From: an uncultured bacterium | Lineage (GTDB): Bacteria; Acidobacteriota; Aminicenantia; UBA2199 | Assembly: GCA_965603365.1 (NCBI GenBank) | Contig: CBFDCR010000004.1 | Location: 21,260 to 85,259 of the forward strand | Direction of reading: 5' to 3' | DNA length: 64,000 bases | In this document: positions 5,966 to 56,697 of the stretch, one piece after another | Position numbering within the stretch: the first letter of the stretch is position 1 | Layout of the letters: each line of letters begins with the position of its first letter | The notes under the pieces: model-generated | What the model was told of the DNA's origin: nothing | Databases searched by the model: none | Seen by the model: only the letters and a program-made list of their open reading frames with translations | Made by a program: the position numbers and the translations under genes

Positions 5966-6006
5966 GGATTTTCGATCCTTCTCTCCTCCATAATCTTTCC
6001 AGTTAC

Positions 6007-6279
6007 TATGGGGGTCATTTGGTCGGGGATGGGGATGATTTCTGCGCTTATGGGAATGGTTTTGTCCGTTATGGGGACGGTTTTGCCGCTTATGGGAATG
6101 GTTTTGCCGGGTATGTGGACCGTTTCGGAGGGTATGGGAATGGTTTTTCCCCTTATGGGGATGATTTTTCCGGCTATGGGGATGGTTTCGCCCGTTATGG
6201 GAATGATTTTGCCCGCTATGTGAATGGTTTTGCCGGGTATGGGAATGGTTTTGCCGCTTATGGGAGTGATTTTTCCGCA
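6007..6279. repeat. 21-bp tandem repeat array A (13 units, consensus ~TATGGGAATGGTTTTGCCGCT)
   Basis: TATGGG motif recurs at 6007, 6028, 6049, 6070, 6091, 6112, 6133, 6154, 6175, 6196, 6217, 6238 and 6259 with an exact 21-bp period; lies in the convergent intergenic region between the B3/4 gene and the 6316-7374 gene. Confidence 0.9.
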
Positions 6280-6315
6280 CTCCCGGGGGCGGGCTGGGGA
6301 AGTGGTGACAGGGGA

Positions 6316-7374
6316 TTAATACACGGTGAGGTTGAATTGGGGGAGGAGTTGTTGGAGGACGTAGAGGCGGTGGTACCAGGCGGCACGGATAAATCGGCAG
6401 GCATCGGATTCCCGGGCAAACGATCGGTCCGCTTCGATGTATTTGAGCCGGGCCACCTCCCAGTGGTATTTGTCATAATTGACACCGATATCGATGCGAC
6501 TGGGGGGAAACAGCTCGCCATCCCGGATGGCCTGCTTCCACCGCTTCACCCGCTCCGCCTTGTCTTCAGATTCAAAGCCGATGATCGCCTTTACCGGGGC
6601 CTCAATATCCGGCCACTGCCGGCGGGTCCTGTCGTCGGCATACTTCCTGGCCTTCTCGGCAAATTGGCCGAAAAAGCGGTGCAGTTCCCTGGCACCCTCC
6701 AGGAAATCGCCGGCATTGTTCCTCGTCACCTTGCCGCCCGACAGCGCCGCCGACTCCGGCTCATACTCCCAGCTCAGGAAAGGGGTATCCGGGTAACTGT
6801 CCACCGAGCCGTGTCCCACCGGCACCAACTCGGCAAACACACCGGCATACTTTTCCAGTTTGGCGGCAATATTCTGCAATACCGTGGTGTTGACCACATT
6901 GTGGGTCGTGATGGTGCGATTCTTCACCTTATTCCAACCGTGGGAGATGCCCACAAAGCCGTAATGGGCAAAGGTGTCGGCAAACACGTGGGCCACCACC
7001 CCGATGAGATGGGGCCAGAGGGGCCGATTCTTTTCAGCCAGGGTATCGGTGAGCATCTGCTGGGCCGGTCGGCTGTTTTTGCGGCAGGCCATACGCTCCA
7101 CGAAACTGCCGTCCGTCGGTTCATTGCCGGGCAGGAAGTGAAAGGGCACCCACACCTTCCACTGGTCCCCGGCCATGGCATTCTGGAAGTCCAGGGGCTT
7201 GTGGCTGGTCATGGTGGGCACGATGGCAAAATCCCTGGAAATCTCGACCTCATCGTCTTCGGTGGCATCATCGACATATTGGGAACAGTAGGCGATGATC
7301 CGGGCCGCCTTATCCTGGATACCGGCAGCCCGGGCCAACGCATACACCCCATAAAAATGCATATCAATCTGCAT
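6316..7374 (-). CDS. hypothetical protein, His/Asp-rich; possibly a metal-dependent hydrolase of the Zn-PLC/P1-nuclease-like fold (weak)
   Basis: Long ORF with host-like GC and a strong GGAGG RBS 6 nt upstream of ATG 7374. H near the N-terminus (MHFYGVYALARAAG), HVFADTFAH (H-x3-D-x3-H) and several other conserved-looking His/Asp/Glu. Fold assignment is from memory only. Confidence 0.55.
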   Translation of the reverse strand: MQIDMHFYGVYALARAAGIQDKAARIIAYCSQYVDDATEDDEVEISRDFAIVPTMTSHKPLDFQNAMAGDQWKVWVPFHFLPGNEPTDGSFVERMACRKNSRPAQQMLTDTLAEKNRPLWPHLIGVVAHVFADTFAHYGFVGISHGWNKVKNRTITTHNVVNTTVLQNIAAKLEKYAGVFAELVPVGHGSVDSYPDTPFLSWEYEPESAALSGGKVTRNNAGDFLEGARELHRFFGQFAEKARKYADDRTRRQWPDIEAPVKAIIGFESEDKAERVKRWKQAIRDGELFPPSRIDIGVNYDKYHWEVARLKYIEADRSFARESDACRFIRAAWYHRLYVLQQLLPQFNLTVY

Positions 7375-7402: not shown

Positions 7403-8953
7403 TCATTTATTTTTTATTTTATTATGCGCTTCGGATAACGCCTCATACCAGATAAGACCTTCGGGGACGGATTTCCGTTCTTTATCAACACCTATAATAT
7501 TTATTCCCTCTTCTAACTCCAATCGCAGTTTATTCCTGTATTCAATCATTAATTCATCGGTATCCAGGCCCTTATGTTCACCAGTATAATGAAAGATAAA
7601 AATTTGTTTGTTCTCATCTTCTATAAGTGATCTAAACATACCGTTAATATGACCATCATCGGTATTAAATCCATACCCAATGACACAAATCACATCAGAT
7701 TTCCTGAATTCATCGTATAATTTAACATATCTTTCTGACATTCTTACGGAAGTCAAAGGTTTGATGCCGCTTTGAGTAAACAAAAAGGGAACCGTTATAT
7801 GATCGCCCTTTGTTAATTTCTCAACCTTTACAATCTTATTTAAATATGGATCATAGAAATCCCTAACAGATCCGTTCAGAAAAAATACATCTCTTTTAGT
7901 AACCTCTTCAATAAAGGTATTGTAATTTGTAGTCCCAATGGTTTTAATATCAAACAGGAATTTATCCTCCAAAACGTCATGATAATAACCTGGTCCCGCT
8001 TTACATCGTTCTATATATTTTTTAGCTATTTCGTAAATATAACGCCTGACAGTATGCAAAAAGATGGCAATTTTACAAAACTTTGCCCAATCAGTCTTGG
8101 GACTGTACAAATATCTCCAGTAGCTATCGATCAAAGATTGATAATCTAATGCCTTTGCATAGAGATCCTCTAAAATCATCTTCCCGAATTGGATGATAAT
8201 GTTTTCATCAGACCCTGTTGGGAAATTAATGAAACTCTCTGACACGATATAATCCAAACCTTCCAAACCCGTACGCCTGTAATCCAGAGAGAAGATACTT
8301 TCAAACTCATCAAAAACATCAATCCCAGGTGGCGTTTTAGCGAAGACTCCATCATTCAATCGGTGAATTAAGGCTTCTCCACAGGAACCGATTAACAATT
8401 CCAATACAGCTTTGACTATTTTCTTGACCTCAACCCTGAATTGTTTACTAATCCCTGAAGTTTCGAGAATATTCAACAATGCAGAAAAATAACTGCTACC
8501 GAAAATTTTATTATAATCACCTAAGCTTGTAGATAAGGCAATTAACTGTGTGTATAATTTTGAACCAAACTTTATATGGGTAATATTTTCAAAGCTTTCC
8601 TTTACTTTGTTCCCTCTCTCACTAAAACTATTCGCATGCCCCTTTACATTTCTATCAAAATCATTTAAATAATTCAAAATAACATCCCGTTTGTTTTCGA
8701 GACTGCCTTTTACTAAAGATTCTAAATGAGATTTCCCGAATGCTGAAACAGGTTTCTTTAAATATCCCAAAGGTAGCCAGTGGGATGCATAAATAGAACC
8801 CTCGGCTACCATTTTTCGTTTTTCATTAAAATCATTTTTATCTCCACTAACATCCATTCTAAATATTTCCAATGCAAATTTTCCACCGGACGGAAGCCCA
8901 TAAGACATCTCCGCCCCTGCGCCGAAAAAAAGGGCCAATGTTGGTCTTTCCAT
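7403..8953 (-). CDS. SIR2-like domain protein (SIR2_2 / 'DSR-like' NADase family), 516 aa
   Basis: N-terminal LALFFGAGAEMSYGLPSGGKFALEIF matches the GAGxS...GLP motif at the start of SIR2_2 domains. Later VICVIGYGFNTDDGHINGMF matches the C-terminal IGYSF.D motif. Low GC (~40%), GAGGAG RBS, 21-bp gap from the upstream membrane-protein gene. Confidence 0.75.
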   Translation of the reverse strand: MERPTLALFFGAGAEMSYGLPSGGKFALEIFRMDVSGDKNDFNEKRKMVAEGSIYASHWLPLGYLKKPVSAFGKSHLESLVKGSLENKRDVILNYLNDFDRNVKGHANSFSERGNKVKESFENITHIKFGSKLYTQLIALSTSLGDYNKIFGSSYFSALLNILETSGISKQFRVEVKKIVKAVLELLIGSCGEALIHRLNDGVFAKTPPGIDVFDEFESIFSLDYRRTGLEGLDYIVSESFINFPTGSDENIIIQFGKMILEDLYAKALDYQSLIDSYWRYLYSPKTDWAKFCKIAIFLHTVRRYIYEIAKKYIERCKAGPGYYHDVLEDKFLFDIKTIGTTNYNTFIEEVTKRDVFFLNGSVRDFYDPYLNKIVKVEKLTKGDHITVPFLFTQSGIKPLTSVRMSERYVKLYDEFRKSDVICVIGYGFNTDDGHINGMFRSLIEDENKQIFIFHYTGEHKGLDTDELMIEYRNKLRLELEEGINIIGVDKERKSVPEGLIWYEALSEAHNKIKNK

Positions 8954-8974
8954 TTTATCCTCCCTCTCCTCTTT

Positions 8975-9700
8975 TTATTTATTATTTGCGTTCTCATTTG
9001 TGTTTTTATTTTTCTCGTTACTTAATTTGTCGGTTCTCCCCTCATCGACCTTATTCTTAAACAACGAGTTAAATATCTCATTTAATTTATCAATGGCCTG
9101 TTTGGAAAACATCCCGGATAAAGCGGCAAATCCCATTACACTGAAAGGCCGTAGTGTTGAGACTTCGGTTTGAATGACGAGAAGACTTCCTTTTATGATC
9201 ATAAAAACAATAAGCGCCAGTACCGAACCGATGGGGAGACGCAGCCAATACCACCAGTACCAACTGGGGTGGAATTTACGATTACCGATAAAATCCGAAA
9301 AAGAAGTAGCTGCATGGATATAGCTGCCCAGGGCACCGGCTATCAACACCAATAGTAACAGACGCAATTCATGGGAAATTTCTAAACCCAACAAAAGCGT
9401 CTTTTTCGACCAATTGTCCTGATCACTTTTCCCTTCTACCGATTGCGTCTCCAGGCTGTCGGTTCTGGCTTCGGCCTGGATATCTGGGGACGCCACTGCC
9501 GGTGGTTTCGACGATGTGGGAGGTTCCACCTTTAAGGGCCAGAATTCAATGATAAAAAGAATCATAATAAAGGGTACGATTATTAAAAAAGCGCCCAGGA
9601 AAAAGCGCTTGCATCCGGTATCCTTTGATTTCAGTGGCGGCTCAGCAGGCTGCTGCTTCTCCAAACCCGAGTTTTTCCCTTCTCTAGTTTCCTCAGTCAT
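8975..9700 (-). CDS. small polytopic membrane protein (3-4 predicted TM helices), first gene of the SIR2 cassette
   Basis: Hydrophobic spans FFLGAFLIIVPFIMILFIIEFW, LRLLLLVLIAGALGSYIHAATSF, WYWLRLPIGSVLALIVFMIIKGSLLV, FSVMGFAALSGMF; charged N-terminus and Asn/Lys-rich C-terminal tail; GAGGAG RBS. Confidence 0.65.
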   Translation of the reverse strand: MTEETREGKNSGLEKQQPAEPPLKSKDTGCKRFFLGAFLIIVPFIMILFIIEFWPLKVEPPTSSKPPAVASPDIQAEARTDSLETQSVEGKSDQDNWSKKTLLLGLEISHELRLLLLVLIAGALGSYIHAATSFSDFIGNRKFHPSWYWWYWLRLPIGSVLALIVFMIIKGSLLVIQTEVSTLRPFSVMGFAALSGMFSKQAIDKLNEIFNSLFKNKVDEGRTDKLSNEKNKNTNENANNK

Positions 9701-9978
9701 ATTTACTCTCCTCTTATATTTTTTTATTCCTTATAAATTTTTTTGCCTTTAATCTCTATCTTTTTGTTAAAGATAAAATAAGTTGGGGAAAAAGTCAATA
9801 GTGGGGTGAGGTTTTTTTATTTTTTTTAGAGTTCCCCTCTCACAGGTTCTGCCATATTTGAGCGTCCGTACTATAAGCGGCAGCAACCTGGCAAAGCTAA
9901 AACACTAATTTAAACTTTAGCTAAGGCACTTAAAGTTTAAGATGCCATAGTAGATGTTAGACCCGTTTATATCGATTA

Positions 9979-10674
9979 TTACTGGATTTCGTAGAATACC
10001 ATCGAGGTATACTGGCCAAAAACCAGGGAAAGAAAGCACTGGTGATTGAGACTCCAGATCAGAGAGATTCCCGGGATTTCATTGGCATAGACCTCTGCTT
10101 TAATATCGTTTAAGACGTCCAGAATTTCCTCTGTGTCCTGGAGCATCTCATGGTAAATCCCTCGAACATCGCCACTCTTCAAGTATCTTCTGACATCCCA
10201 GAATAAGGAAAAGATTAATCCATTATCAATACGAAATTTACCATAATTGAAAGTTTCCAACTCTGCAATCACCTCGGGATTGTAAGGGGTCACTTCGGCA
10301 AGTTGTGTTAAGTCGATATAAGCCAGCCTGGCATTCTCCATATGAACGATAGCCGTATCGATCAGGTTTTGCAATTCGTTAAAATCCGTGCCGTTCAAAT
10401 CACTGATCTCTATTCTGTTGAGAAAATCAATTATAACGGAATGGGATTTTAAAAAATGGCCTGCACCTTCAACCACGTACAGGTTGATGGAAGAACCGGT
10501 ATTATCGGCCTGAATCCCCCCCTGGAAAGCCATGGGCGACCAATTGGCTTTGAGGGAAGCCAAGCCATTCACATGTAACAACAGAACAGCAACAAGCAAC
10601 ACAGAAATTTTTAAGCAAAAGCATTTTTTTATGTCCATTAGATCCTCCATTTTTCTATTTAAATATATAAACAT
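9979..10674 (-). CDS. secreted hypothetical protein, tandem paralog 1
   Basis: Signal peptide (LKISVLLVAVLLLHVNGLA) and ~50% identity to the adjacent 10740-11405 product, with shared blocks FNYGKFR.D.GL.FSLFWDVRRYLK.GDVRG.Y..ML.DTE.ILD and C-terminal QYTSMVFYEI. Confidence 0.6.
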   Translation of the reverse strand: MFIYLNRKMEDLMDIKKCFCLKISVLLVAVLLLHVNGLASLKANWSPMAFQGGIQADNTGSSINLYVVEGAGHFLKSHSVIIDFLNRIEISDLNGTDFNELQNLIDTAIVHMENARLAYIDLTQLAEVTPYNPEVIAELETFNYGKFRIDNGLIFSLFWDVRRYLKSGDVRGIYHEMLQDTEEILDVLNDIKAEVYANEIPGISLIWSLNHQCFLSLVFGQYTSMVFYEIQ

Positions 10675-10739: not shown

Positions 10740-11405
10740 TCAGAGATTCTGAACAATCTCGTAGAATACCATAGAGGTATACTGGTTAAAAATGAGGGAG
10801 AGGAAACATCGATGATTCAGATCCCAGATTTGCGATATTTCCGGCATCTGGCAGGCATCCACCGCTGCCTGAAGATTGTACAAAATGTCTAAAATGTCCT
10901 CGGTATCATGGAGCATCTTACGGTATAATCCCCGGACATCGCCGCGCTTCAAGTATCTTCTGACATCCCAGAATAAGGAAAAGTTTAAACCACTATCCCC
11001 ACGGAATTTTCCATAATTGAAAGTAAACAATTCTCTTATTACCTCCTGGTTGTAGGGAGTAATATCGGCTAAGTACGTTAAGTCATCGTAAGCAGCCCTG
11101 GCACCTTCCATATAAAAGATAGCATTACCGATCGACTCCTGGAATTCGCCGTAATCTGGATCATTCTCGTCATACAACTCGATTTTGTGGAGAAAGTAAA
11201 GGATTTCAGAATGGAATTTCAGAAAATACGCTCCCCCCTCGGTAACATAGTAACTAATGGTGTGACCGGGATTCGGTGCCCCGATATCATCAAAAGCGGC
11301 GGGTGACCAATTGGAAACAAGCCGAGCCAGGGCATGCGACTGAAATAACATAAAGACAAAAACAAACAACATAGTCTTAAAAAAGCAACCTCTTTTTATG
11401 TCCAT
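10740..11405 (-). CDS. secreted hypothetical protein, tandem paralog 2
   Basis: Signal peptide MLFVFVFMLFQSHALA; paralogous to 9979-10674. Confidence 0.6.
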   Translation of the reverse strand: MDIKRGCFFKTMLFVFVFMLFQSHALARLVSNWSPAAFDDIGAPNPGHTISYYVTEGGAYFLKFHSEILYFLHKIELYDENDPDYGEFQESIGNAIFYMEGARAAYDDLTYLADITPYNQEVIRELFTFNYGKFRGDSGLNFSLFWDVRRYLKRGDVRGLYRKMLHDTEDILDILYNLQAAVDACQMPEISQIWDLNHRCFLSLIFNQYTSMVFYEIVQNL

Positions 11406-13781: not shown

Positions 13782-13893
13782 ATTCACTCATATATTTTAC
13801 AAACATTAGAGCCACCGGTCAATAAAAAACTAACTTTTTGCTGTATCCTGGCTTTCTGGCCATAAAAAGTTCATTTGCCGACATTTTACACAT

Positions 13894-15204
13894 TTATGCA
13901 GAGCTAACTGCCCTCAGATTAGACTTCGGTGCCAGTACAGACATAGACAGAGGAGCCCTATGCCTCTCTTCATAGGGATTGTAATGGCACCATGGTTTTC
14001 TACAAAAATGATTTCCGTTTGAGCCATAACAAACCGGCTGGCAAGCATGGCATACATACCGATACTCGCAATCTTTACAAACCTCAATCTGATCCAGGGA
14101 GAGCCTCCAGAACCTTTGAAGCTTTTTCCCCCAGATAATATCTTTTAAAGAGTTTTCCCGAACGTTGCCGCAGGACTCATTTCTTTGCATAATGCAGGGG
14201 AATACATCGCCAGTGCTGGTTATGTCAACCTTTCCCCGCCAGCATGCATTCCCTCTAAACCTCCAGAGAAAAGTACCTTTATTGACCGGGAAAAATACGG
14301 CATCTTTCTCCTTCTGTTCGGAAATAAATTTATCGGGAACCAGTTCACTATCGATGGAACCCCCGGAGGGTCGAAGGATTCCATACTGGGGATCCTCCAT
14401 ACCCAATTCCTTCAGAAAAGCCATTGTTTCATCAACAACATCCTGGTTATGCTTCATCACCAATATACAGTAACGAACATTAACTCCTTTTTTTTCTAAC
14501 TTTCGACAATTCGCCAGCAGCCTGGTATGAGATCCCTTCACCCTGGTTATCTGATCATGAATTTCAGGTCGTTTTGAATAGATGGAAGTGGACACACTGA
14601 TTCCAAATTCTACGATTTGATCCACCCATTCATCCTTGAGAATATTAAGATTCGAAAAGAGTTGAATATCCTTATAATCGCATTTCCTTGCCCTCTCGGC
14701 AATCGAGAACAGATCTTCACCATACAATAGAGGCTCACCACCGATGAATTGCAACGCCTGGCAACCCAGTCCCGCCGCCTCGTATATAACCCTCATCCAC
14801 TCTCCCTTTTTAAGTCGTCTTCCTGCCGTCCCAGGAGGATTATTCTGAGAATAGCAATGCCGACATCTCTGGTTGCAGTCTTCCCGGAGCTCCAACCAGA
14901 TAAAATCAAGTTTATCATGAGATGAGGACAGGGGACGTTTTTCAACTTCTTTAGGGCCAGAATAAAAGTTTCCCAGGTCCTCTGAATCCAACCTATTTAG
15001 ATAAGCCAGGGCATCGGTAAAACCGATATCAGGAATCCGGGACGAAACCCTGGAAATCTTCTCTCCCTTTTCGCAGGCTTCGATCAACTTCACCGCAATG
15101 GGGTCGATAGAATGAACCGATCCATTCATTAGATTATACACTGCACCACCCCTGGCTCCCTTGACCAGGTAGCAATCATCTTTCAAGAAAAAATACACAC
15201 CCAC
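13894..15204 (-). CDS. radical SAM / SPASM-domain peptide-modifying enzyme with an N-terminal RRE(PqqD)-like segment
   Basis: CNQRCRHC (Cx3Cx2C) at ~residue 110. C-terminal Cys-rich auxiliary-cluster region (CWRGK...FPCIMQRNESCGN...CKDCEYRYVCHAC...). N-terminal YLVKGARGGAVYNLMNGSVHSIDPIAVKLIEACEKGEKI resembles RiPP recognition elements. Confidence 0.8.
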   Translation of the reverse strand: MGVYFFLKDDCYLVKGARGGAVYNLMNGSVHSIDPIAVKLIEACEKGEKISRVSSRIPDIGFTDALAYLNRLDSEDLGNFYSGPKEVEKRPLSSSHDKLDFIWLELREDCNQRCRHCYSQNNPPGTAGRRLKKGEWMRVIYEAAGLGCQALQFIGGEPLLYGEDLFSIAERARKCDYKDIQLFSNLNILKDEWVDQIVEFGISVSTSIYSKRPEIHDQITRVKGSHTRLLANCRKLEKKGVNVRYCILVMKHNQDVVDETMAFLKELGMEDPQYGILRPSGGSIDSELVPDKFISEQKEKDAVFFPVNKGTFLWRFRGNACWRGKVDITSTGDVFPCIMQRNESCGNVRENSLKDIIWGKKLQRFWRLSLDQIEVCKDCEYRYVCHACQPVCYGSNGNHFCRKPWCHYNPYEERHRAPLSMSVLAPKSNLRAVSSA

Positions 15205-15243
15205 ATCCTCCTACAGGACGAAAGGGGCTCTTTCACTTTTACG

Positions 15244-19242: not shown

Positions 19243-19450
19243 GAAAAAAGTACCGGTACGCGGGAGATGAGTACCGGGACTTAAAGGATGTGTACCGGTA
19301 CTCGAATCATATGTACCGGTACACGAAGGGTGAGTACCGGGACACAAGGGATGGGGAGCGGTACACAGAGGGTGTGTACCGGGACACGAAAAAAAAGTAC
19401 CGGTACTCAAAGGACGAGTACCGGTACTCGGAAGGTGAGTTTCGTGAAGC
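19243..19450. repeat. 21-bp tandem repeat array B (~10 units, consensus ~GAGTACCGGGACACGAAGGGT, with palindromic core GTACCGGTAC)
   Basis: GTACC recurs at 19250, 19271, 19292, 19313, 19334, 19376, 19397 and 19418 at an exact 21-bp period, with degenerate units at 19355 and 19439; lies in the convergent region between lepA and hutI. Confidence 0.85.
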
Positions 19451-36894: not shown

Positions 36895-37010
36895 ACCCCC
36901 AAATAAAACAATCAAAGACACTCGGAAATTACTGAAATTACTTCCTGTCGAAAAACTGGTGCCCGAAAATTTGCCCGTTCCTTTTTACGGCCCTCAAATA
37001 TTTTTGTCCA

Positions 37011-37220
37011 GGGGTTGGGAACAATTTTTTAGGCATTGGCAATGATTTTTTAGGCGTTGTGAATCGTTTCCGAGGCGTTGTGGATGATTTTTTAGGCATT
37101 GTGGATCGTTTCGGAGGGGTTGGTAACGGTTATTTAGGGGTTGTCAATCACTTCTTAGCAGTTGGGAACCGTTTTTTAGTGCCCGGGAATGAGTTCTTAG
37201 GCAACGTGTGTCCTTAAATG
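37011..37220. repeat. 21-bp tandem repeat array C (10 units, consensus ~GGCGTTGTGAATGATTTTTTA)
   Basis: Units begin at 37011, 37032, 37053, 37074, 37095, 37116, 37137, 37158, 37179 and 37200. The plus frame encodes GVGNNFL/GIGNDFL/GVVNRFR... heptads but has no start codon. Confidence 0.85.
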
Positions 37221-55341: not shown

Positions 55342-56697
55342 ATGGCGATAGAGCTAAATGATTATTTAGTAAATAGCTGGACCCATAAAAGGGAACTAAA
55401 CGACAAAATAAAACTTACTATTCTGGCTGCCGGTTTAGGAAAGAGAATGGATCCGCTCACCGCTTACCACCTTCCTAAGCCTATGTTTCCTATTGGGGGC
55501 AGTGTACCTATGACAGAAATTTGGGTTAGAAGAGCTGTGAAATCCGGCATTACCGATATCTCCATGAATTTATGCGTGCTTAGTAATACTATTAAGAATC
55601 ATTTTAAAAACGGGGCCAGGTTTGGCGCCCATATAAATTATGTAGAAGAAGATATTCCATCCGGAACTCTTGGAGGCGTTTGCAAACAAGCATTGGGAAA
55701 TAAAGCCAGGCAAGCCTTTGAAAACGAAAGGATGCCTGAAATAGAGGCATTTAAGGGGACAACGATCATTGCGCCCAGCGGTGATATTATCACCAATTTT
55801 GAATCTGAATTGTTAGAGGAAATGTATGAGATTCATAAAAAAAAGGGATCTGCATTTACTATGGTCCTGACCCCTATTCCCTGGGAAAAAAGAGGTGAAT
55901 TCGGAACAGTAGAGCTTGAATCCCCTGGAAATTTAAAAGGTGCTATCTCAAAATCAGGAAAAATCGTAAATTTCAGGGAAAAAGATCCTGATTCTCCCAG
56001 CAATTTAAACAATGCATCTATTTATATGATAGAAATGGACTTATTAAAAGCTCTTGACCCCCTTCGCACCCCGGCAAATCTCCAGAGCCGGGAGCCATTT
56101 TACGATTTTGGTAAACATGTTTTCCCGGCAATGTTAAACCGGCTTAAATATGTACAGTTGCCAAAAGACTTTTTATTGTGGGGCATCCAGTATGATGGAT
56201 TATGGTTTGACGTGGGTAGAAAACGGGATTACCTGAATGTGAATAAATCCTTCCTGGATGGAGATTTCGATCTGGAAATCCCTTACGAAAAACTACCCTG
56301 GGGATACCTGGGCACCAATGTAGCCATCGACTTTTCTAAGGTTACCATTATCCCGCCGGTAATCATTGGTAACGACTGTATTATCGCACCAGAGACAAGA
56401 ATTGGACCATACGCGATTATCGGGGACGGCTGGACAATAGAACGAAAAGCCTGCATCAGCAACTCCGTTTTATGGAAACGCTATGCGTATTTTCCCAATA
56501 AGGGAGATCAAATATCGGTTAATGAAAGAAAAGTGGATGACATGCACCAGGTACGGAGAGGCGTGACGATCGATGAATGTATTATCGTGGGCGGAACGAT
56601 TGAAAGTGATTTGCGGGAAAAAACGGTAGATGTCCTCCAGGACGGCCAAACAGAAATCATTCCCATCGACTGGATACCCAACGAAACAAGAGCTTAA
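55342..56697 (+). CDS. sugar-phosphate nucleotidyltransferase with C-terminal left-handed beta-helix (NDP-sugar pyrophosphorylase family)
   Basis: ILAAGLGKRMDPLT...PKPMFPIGG (G-x-G-x-R nucleotidyltransferase motif); C-terminal hexapeptide repeats VIIGNDCIIAPETRIGPYAIIGDGWTI; low GC. Confidence 0.75.
   Translation: MAIELNDYLVNSWTHKRELNDKIKLTILAAGLGKRMDPLTAYHLPKPMFPIGGSVPMTEIWVRRAVKSGITDISMNLCVLSNTIKNHFKNGARFGAHINYVEEDIPSGTLGGVCKQALGNKARQAFENERMPEIEAFKGTTIIAPSGDIITNFESELLEEMYEIHKKKGSAFTMVLTPIPWEKRGEFGTVELESPGNLKGAISKSGKIVNFREKDPDSPSNLNNASIYMIEMDLLKALDPLRTPANLQSREPFYDFGKHVFPAMLNRLKYVQLPKDFLLWGIQYDGLWFDVGRKRDYLNVNKSFLDGDFDLEIPYEKLPWGYLGTNVAIDFSKVTIIPPVIIGNDCIIAPETRIGPYAIIGDGWTIERKACISNSVLWKRYAYFPNKGDQISVNERKVDDMHQVRRGVTIDECIIVGGTIESDLREKTVDVLQDGQTEIIPIDWIPNETRA

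Follow-up and report, generated by a model that had tools for sequence, protein, structure and literature searches.

Several classes of repeated DNA resemble the arrays described here, each in a different respect. The iterons of Rep_3 plasmids are head-to-tail repeats with an asymmetric conserved core and a variable spacer, set about two helical turns apart, a period that lets monomers bind one face of the DNA; other examples are those of F, R6K and P1 incA. The Xis and Cox sites of phages such as lambda, P2 and L5 are likewise helix-phased direct repeats with an asymmetric site of about 13 bp, and they nucleate a winged-helix protein filament that bends DNA. REP/BIME elements are lineage-specific, dispersed and strictly intergenic, and often lie after gene 3' ends or in convergent gaps. 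They bind gyrase and IHF, and some of them stabilise or terminate transcripts. Bacterial VNTRs and Jeffreys-type minisatellites show whole-unit differences between strains, several loci that share a core, and sites prone to recombination. At the RNA level, CsrB/RsmZ present GGA motifs at intervals of about 20 nt. The arrays of 21-bp units reported here, of which a literature search found no description, share some of these traits with each class.

The DNA analyzed is a stretch of 64,000 nucleotides from an uncultured Aminicenantes bacterium (hereafter the window), which carries the dcw/ftsZ cluster and three tandem arrays. Its assignment to Candidatus Aminicenantes agrees with the relatives of its LepA. 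Array A (6007..6279, plus strand) consists of 13 units of 21 bp with the consensus TATGGGAATGGTTTTGCCGCT, in which a core (TGGGAATGGTTTT) is joined to a variable 8-bp linker. Array B (19250..19438, plus strand) has 9 units of 21 bp and a degenerate tenth reaching 19459, each unit being made of the 10-bp palindrome GTACCGGKAC and an 11-bp variable, purine-rich segment (NCRAAGGRTGA). Array C (37011..37213, plus strand) has 9 units of 21 bp (to 37199) with the consensus GGCGTTGTGAATGATTTTTTA, the core TGKGAAYGATTTT as in A, a TTAGGC-type linker and a partial 42-bp alternation, and it ends in a 14-bp partial unit (GGCAACGTGTGTCC, to 37213). When the sequence is laid out at 21 bases per line, all three arrays keep an exact 21-bp register with zero indels.

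Tandem Repeats Finder returned a period of 21 for array A (6029-6278, 11.9 copies, score 221) and for array B (19249-19440, 9.1 copies), and periods of 21 and 42 for array C (37024-37149). Motif counts in the window were well above expectation: 15 matches versus 3.5 expected for the array A unit core, 10 versus 0.9 for the array B palindrome (GTACCGGTAC), and 17 versus 0.6 for the degenerate A/C core (TGKGRAYNRTTTY), with 16 of the 17 falling within A and C. As a control, arrays of at least 3.5 copies were rare in 1.3 Mb of unrelated bacterial loci (n = 10) and showed no favored period. A LepA search of genome contigs gave matches that were only 53-57% identical and came from other phyla, and these loci served as controls. 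The three arrays noticed in the first-pass annotation are thus real and above chance. Its limits were right for A and essentially right, if slightly generous, for B (19243-19450) and for C (ten units, to 37220). The sole match to the core motif outside the arrays (TGGGAATGATTTC, 56653-56665, minus strand, inside the ORF 55342-56697) is probably due to chance.

The genes flanking the arrays had also been described correctly. Array A separates a B3_4-domain gene (plus strand) from a DUF6765 gene (6316..7374, minus strand), to the 3' end of which it is attached even where the other flank is replaced. Array B lies between lepA (plus strand) and an amidohydrolase gene (minus strand), and array C between the genes for UDP-glucose dehydrogenase and alanine dehydrogenase (both plus strand). 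The last unit of array A provides the left arm and loop of a hairpin, GGGAGTG-N9-CACTCCC (6262..6284), which is located about 32 nt beyond the DUF6765 stop codon and is present in all three strains and appears in a predicted RNA fold; since it has no U-tract, we do not call it a terminator. A CRISPR array was also considered and rejected, because CRISPR arrays combine repeats of at least 23 bp with unique spacers of similar length and the units here consist of a 13-bp core and an 8-bp linker with no unique spacers.

Comparison among strains was informative about the nature of the arrays. It involved near-identical strains (L081-L084 and L087-L089; 99% DNA identity and 0-1% differences at 4-fold sites) and a more distant relative (L085 and L086; about 92% identical, with about 10% differences at 4-fold degenerate sites). 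Array A has 13 units in the window, 11 in L081-L083 and 5 in L085. Array B has 9 units in the window, 10 in L081-L084 and 2 in L085 and L086, and array C has 9 units in the window and 2 in L087/L088. Every array thus differs between close strains, always by whole units and with junctions at places where two units share sequence, which bears out the earlier suggestion of a minisatellite with unit-number variation. Each extra unit of the longer alleles has a sequence of its own, which makes the strain differences look as if longer arrays had suffered deletions, and not like fresh duplications. Assembly collapse is an unlikely cause of these alleles, since the arrays contain no exact repeat of assembler k-mer length and the assemblies agree; identical alleles were recovered in independent assemblies.

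With head-to-tail 21-bp units (9-13 of them) and unit-number polymorphism at the same locus, A, B and C are non-coding hypervariable minisatellites of an Aminicenantes chromosome, gaining and losing whole 21-bp units. If they are only that, they would still provide high-resolution strain markers for an uncultured phylum. They do not resemble typical bacterial VNTRs in every respect. Units of typical VNTRs are near-identical and their period varies by locus, whereas here the units diverge by 25-30% and the period is fixed at 21 bp. Moreover, Aminicenantes lineages that differ greatly in G+C content have the conserved core in common. In the units shared between strains, divergence was 6/105 for array A and 0/42 for array B, compared to 4-5% at the 4-fold sites of adjacent genes. 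As this is close to the local neutral rate, constraint over that time span is modest or undetectable.

Arrays A and C are members of one dispersed repeat family found across Aminicenantes lineages, which we denote A/C/D/E/J. In the family unit an asymmetric core of 13 bp, TGKGAAYGRTTTY, is conserved, and the 8 bp after it form an array-specific linker; among the consensus units of 11 arrays, the cores agree and the linkers differ. The window's own species cluster has at least two more members, D (L224) and E (L225), which are located elsewhere in the genomes; the first units of array E are C-like and the later ones A-like. When metagenome contigs were scanned for the pattern (at least 120 matches), the core of A and C was recovered in long and diverged arrays, each of 13-22 units, on contigs of 0.37-0.43 G+C. 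At least eight core-family arrays are on such lower-GC Aminicenantes contigs, which encode proteins named Candidatus Aminicenantes. The earlier view that A, B and C make up one family therefore holds for the 21-bp period and fails for the sequence, because array B shares the period only and is a different element.

Between lineages of 0.50 and about 0.40 G+C the core has been kept and the linkers have been replaced. Variants private to a single unit number 4.0 per position in the core and 7.9 in the linker, a twofold difference (P = 3e-4). They are scarcest in the AAYGRTTT portion of the core, and the TGKG portion shows no deficit. Much of the apparent conservation could, however, be inherited through unit duplication. 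Many core-family arrays have a 42-bp super-period in addition to the 21-bp one. Despite unit divergence of 25-30%, about 150 units printed in register showed a single frame-shifting indel (L169).

The first-pass annotation had reported that A and C share a core and translate into similar heptads in one frame, which is correct. Because the period equals seven codons, and because one plus frame is open across A and C, these arrays might encode heptad-repeat proteins (YGNGFAA / GVVNDFL), or have done so until recently; gene callers do predict small ORFs on such arrays. We consider this scarcely credible. Positional entropy lacks a 3-base periodicity in A, B, C and 114 related units, and in those 114 units the GN.F frame contains 7 stops, where column shuffles predict 8.1. 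The frame lacks a start codon and an N-terminal domain, and in array A it runs antisense into the DUF6765 gene. Among 5.8 billion proteins, only three singleton hypothetical ORFs (106-159 aa) resemble the array A translation; two of them were traceable, to L224 and L225, where each is an ORF predicted on another array. Pfam gave no match to the translation, and nothing was found when proteins were searched with the second open frame of a J-type array. Alleles of two units exist, and the palindromic array B finds no explanation in heptads. The proposal that the arrays are decayed remnants of a GN.F heptad gene family is therefore abandoned, given the flat codon entropy, the expected number of stops and the lack of an intact family in the proteins searched.

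Array B has a different origin. It is an element separate from A and C, a tandem amplification of the predicted intrinsic-terminator hairpin of the convergent amidohydrolase gene. The terminator-like site (19385..19429, minus strand) has a 15-pair stem and a T-run (minus strand 19429-19395), and is built from the final two units of B together with the A-run before them, 33 nt past the amidohydrolase stop codon. Judged by its sequence, array B thus has what is expected of an intrinsic terminator, namely a G+C-rich hairpin and a T-run just after a stop codon. The 2-unit allele of L085/L086 corresponds exactly to this terminator-like part. As GTACCGGTAC reads identically on both strands, the two arms of the terminator also repeat each other directly at a distance of 21 bp, an arrangement in which slippage could readily start. 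No array was present at the lepA locus of relatives whose LepA is 85-86% identical, and a different gene lay downstream there.

Of the three arrays, B alone is structured when folded as RNA (z = -7.2 for the plus strand and -10.5 for the minus strand), which is due to its 10-bp palindrome. It is also the array closest to REP/BIME elements. REPs, however, are imperfect palindromes of about 35 bp in alternating orientation, in contrast to the strictly head-to-tail 21-bp units seen here, and A and C have neither the dyad symmetry nor the fold of a REP stem-loop.

Another reading is that the arrays act as RNA. Transcribed repeats could expose a GGA/GGAUG-like motif every 21 nt on the plus strand and thereby titrate an RNA-binding protein or a small RNA, while the hairpins of array B would stabilize or terminate transcripts. 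The plus strands are GU-rich, and GGA occurs in 11 of the 13 units of A and in about half of the B and C units. Array B units may place AAGGAUG-like sequences, in purine-rich loops of 11 nt, on top of hairpins, as in CsrB/RsmZ. Read along the minus strand, the first two B units form the terminator-like hairpin with its T-run, and T-runs follow several arrays in core orientation. We nonetheless regard an RNA function as unlikely. A and C fold no better than shuffled sequences on either strand (z from -0.1 to +1.0). The recurrent T-to-G change in the B palindrome is uncompensated in its pairing partner. Half of the related J-type units have no GGA, and the orientation of the arrays relative to neighboring genes is random. 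No Rfam model matched over the arrays, either at the gathering threshold or at E <= 5, and no promoter-like sites were seen beside A or B, so that, unlike CsrB/RsmZ, the arrays have no match to a covariance model and are not framed by a promoter and terminator of their own. Their copy number is also hypervariable, whereas sponge RNAs are not known to range from 2 to 10 sites among strains.

Two helical turns is the sole feature common to all the arrays, including B. Period 21 is found again on Aminicenantes contigs in arrays outside the family that are built of unrelated units, namely L129a (14 units), L160b, L167a and L167b. One array that resembles A (L162, 435-1145, 34 units, GGGGATGGTTTTCCATGGTTT, G+C 0.52) drifts between 20- and 21-bp units, so the strict period is not universal. 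In another contig (L222, 7320-7734), from a relative with 85% LepA identity, a 63-bp (3 x 21) repeat of 6.6 copies and 89% identity fills a called gene of 144 aa that has no Pfam hit; this one may be a genuine coding repeat.

According to a dinucleotide wedge model, A, C, L167 and L113 should be strongly curved in phase, and the predicted bending disappears when the period is shortened to 18-20 bp. The same model gives a straight path for B, L129a and other arrays, so curvature cannot account for all 21-bp arrays.

Taken together, the explanation that we favor, though only tentatively, is that these are non-coding hypervariable minisatellites and that those of the A/C type serve as phased binding sites and/or as curved DNA, with B as a separate case. 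We infer that the two-turn register of the A/C-type arrays is maintained by a function at the DNA level. The 21-bp register would place all cores on one side of the helix, where they might provide a platform for cooperative binding by a putative lineage-specific DNA-binding protein, and/or an intrinsically curved segment, in a manner analogous to plasmid iterons or to the tandem Xis/Cox sites of phages. Unit number would shift through misaligned recombination or replication slippage between similar units, and the arrays would occupy intergenic gaps that also take strain-specific insertions. The notion of phased protein-binding sites, already put forward in the first-pass annotation, is therefore plausible on account of the two-turn period, the conserved core with its free linker and the predicted curvature of A and C. 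As to a candidate binder, no gene family recurs beside the arrays. In addition, the core occurs only inside arrays and not as solitary sites, unlike the sites of an ordinary regulator, and alleles of as few as 2 units are tolerated. Inspected by eye, no array fits CRP-, Fur- or Zur-like sites or the phasing of a sigma-70 promoter, and a G-quadruplex was dismissed because its loops would be 18 nt long.

Almost as likely as phased binding or curved DNA, and thus a real possibility, is that this is a family of functionless or selfish minisatellites. Slippage or unequal exchange would create such arrays, occasional duplication of array fragments would spread them, deletion of units would slowly remove them, and the shared core would reflect descent or a copying bias instead of a host function. 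Much of the strain comparison is consistent with this: unit number is highly polymorphic down to 2-unit alleles, and shared units are substituted at near the local neutral rate. No partner gene goes with the arrays, and the motif is absent outside them. The lepA locus has no array in relatives with 85-86% LepA identity, B can simply be derived from a terminator with arms 21 bp apart, and the period of the related L162 array drifts. On the other hand, the absence of function would leave unexplained why arrays of unrelated units have the 21-bp period in common, why indels are nearly absent among such diverged units, why the core persists at 0.50 and about 0.40 G+C while linkers are replaced, and why private variants are half as frequent in it. 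Furthermore, the strain differences look like deletions of unique units, and with no restoring force old arrays should presumably be gone by now.

A bolder version of a DNA-level function is a dedicated Aminicenantes system, in which a lineage-specific protein would polymerize on the 13-bp core, or on any 21-bp lattice, to form curved nucleoprotein segments, the arrays being the cis half of a chromatin or defense function. We offer it as a speculation with a small chance of being right. If true, the segments could be barriers or supercoil sinks between transcription units, or else landing pads or decoys at the borders of defense islands that titrate, for instance, plasmid or phage replication initiators. 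A fixed period over unrelated units, together with a core kept across G+C contents, suggests a trans-acting factor or a DNA-shape constraint undescribed for bacteria.

Titration of a replication initiator was also considered by itself, with the arrays as chromosomal iteron-like or DnaA-box-like decoys for the initiator of the host or of an invading plasmid or phage. The format is that of iterons: direct repeats of a size within the 17-22 bp of iterons, spaced about two turns apart, in which the core is conserved and the spacer varies. The arrays also adjoin defense-type genes. BLAST of the arrays against plasmids gave one match, to the 2.5-kb Enterococcus faecalis plasmid NZ_CP117502.1. There, four 22-bp iterons (TTTATAGGCATGGTTTTGTCTG; L226, 715-800) precede a Rep_3 (WH1+WH2) initiator gene, and 18/21 bases are shared with the A unit at 6049. 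This is probably a coincidence; because alignment of repeats against repeats inflates significance, the match is within chance and we treat it as an analogy and not as homology. Iterons have an initiator gene and a replicon next to them, whereas these arrays are chromosomal, have housekeeping flanks and have no rep gene beside any of them. Iterons also number 3-9 units, compared to 9-22 in the arrays described here, which occur several per 64 kb and are hypervariable among strains. Arrays B, C and a J-type array had no plasmid matches, and none of the arrays matched phage records or viral contigs; the 21-bp repeats that scans of viral contigs did bring up were all short, perfect and unrelated, and no array of the B type was among them.

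The complement of the DnaA box has the consensus TGTGNAWAA, and DnaA oligomers use a spacing of 11 bp. Some C and J units hold TGTGAATGA or TGTGGATGA, one mismatch away from that consensus. A DnaA-box reading of TGTGAATGA was set aside, since the TGTG of the box is broken in most A units and the arrays have a spacing of 21 bp instead of 11 bp. Overall, we find an initiator decoy quite improbable.

A conserved leader, trailer or terminal repeat was sought around the arrays, as was a recurrent neighbor gene, and none was found; the two GAF histidine kinases that occur next to arrays are unrelated. The core is randomly oriented with respect to flanking genes, and the gaps are convergent, tandem and divergent. 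Neighbors are often accessory genes, such as restriction-modification and toxin-antitoxin genes, DUF4143 ATPases and HTH proteins. One intergenic zone of 1.7 kb on an Aminicenantes contig (L167, 6527-8202) contains a 33-bp repeat, two different arrays of 21-bp hairpin units and an 18-unit core-family array. Among them lies what, judged by eye from translations, is a DUF433-like and PIN-like toxin-antitoxin pair, and the zone adjoins a DUF4143-type AAA ATPase (assigned by eye; the L126 homolog matched Pfam DUF4143).

Rearrangements were seen at the edges of two arrays of the window. In L081-L083 the left flank of array A has been replaced by a GAF histidine kinase gene, and the array is still joined to DUF6765. 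In L087/L088, which are 98-99% identical to the window, a 6.5-kb island with ResIII helicase/nuclease and N6_N4_Mtase genes lies exactly at the 3' edge of array C. It is inserted between window positions 37213 and 37214 and occupies approximately 3267-9736 of L087. The right end of this island repeats a motif of about 28 bp (AATTTGCC..CCTTTTTACG) that lies immediately before array C in the window (about 36960-36995). Array E, in turn, adjoins a restriction-modification pair. The idea that the arrays are recombination hotspots, raised when they were first noticed, thus has circumstantial support from the rearranged left flank of A and the island at the edge of C. The arrays flag intergenic sites of island entry, with restriction-modification genes at C, a restriction-modification pair by E and a SIR2-like gene near A. 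Their position next to island insertion points recalls the setting of Xis/Cox sites, yet the arrays persist where the island is absent. Xis/Cox sites, moreover, number 2-6, are spaced about 10-11 bp apart and lie inside attP, whereas no integrase or attachment-site architecture was seen here.

Further differences between strains are found around array A. The tract comprising the array and DUF6765 (5990-7355) is 92% identical to L081/L082, as compared to 99.3% over the next 19 kb, and DUF6765 is split into two ORFs in L081/L082. The low identity and the split gene suggest either a recombination tract or a decaying gene. Next to it, a strain-specific insertion (7415-9735), missing in L081/L082 and in L085, contains a weakly SIR2_2-like gene (7403-8953) and a 241-aa ORF (8975-9700). 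This is probably a defense-type island, about 1 kb from array A. It falls within a low-GC stretch of the window (about 8-16 kb), whose G+C content is 0.41, versus about 0.51 elsewhere. A radical SAM/SPASM gene (13894-15204; region 13841-15238) is absent from the 92% relative L085 and present in both the window and L081. Finally, two minus-strand ORFs without a Pfam hit (9979-10674 and 10740-11405, encoding 231 and 221 aa) are adjacent paralogues that share about 76-77% DNA identity.
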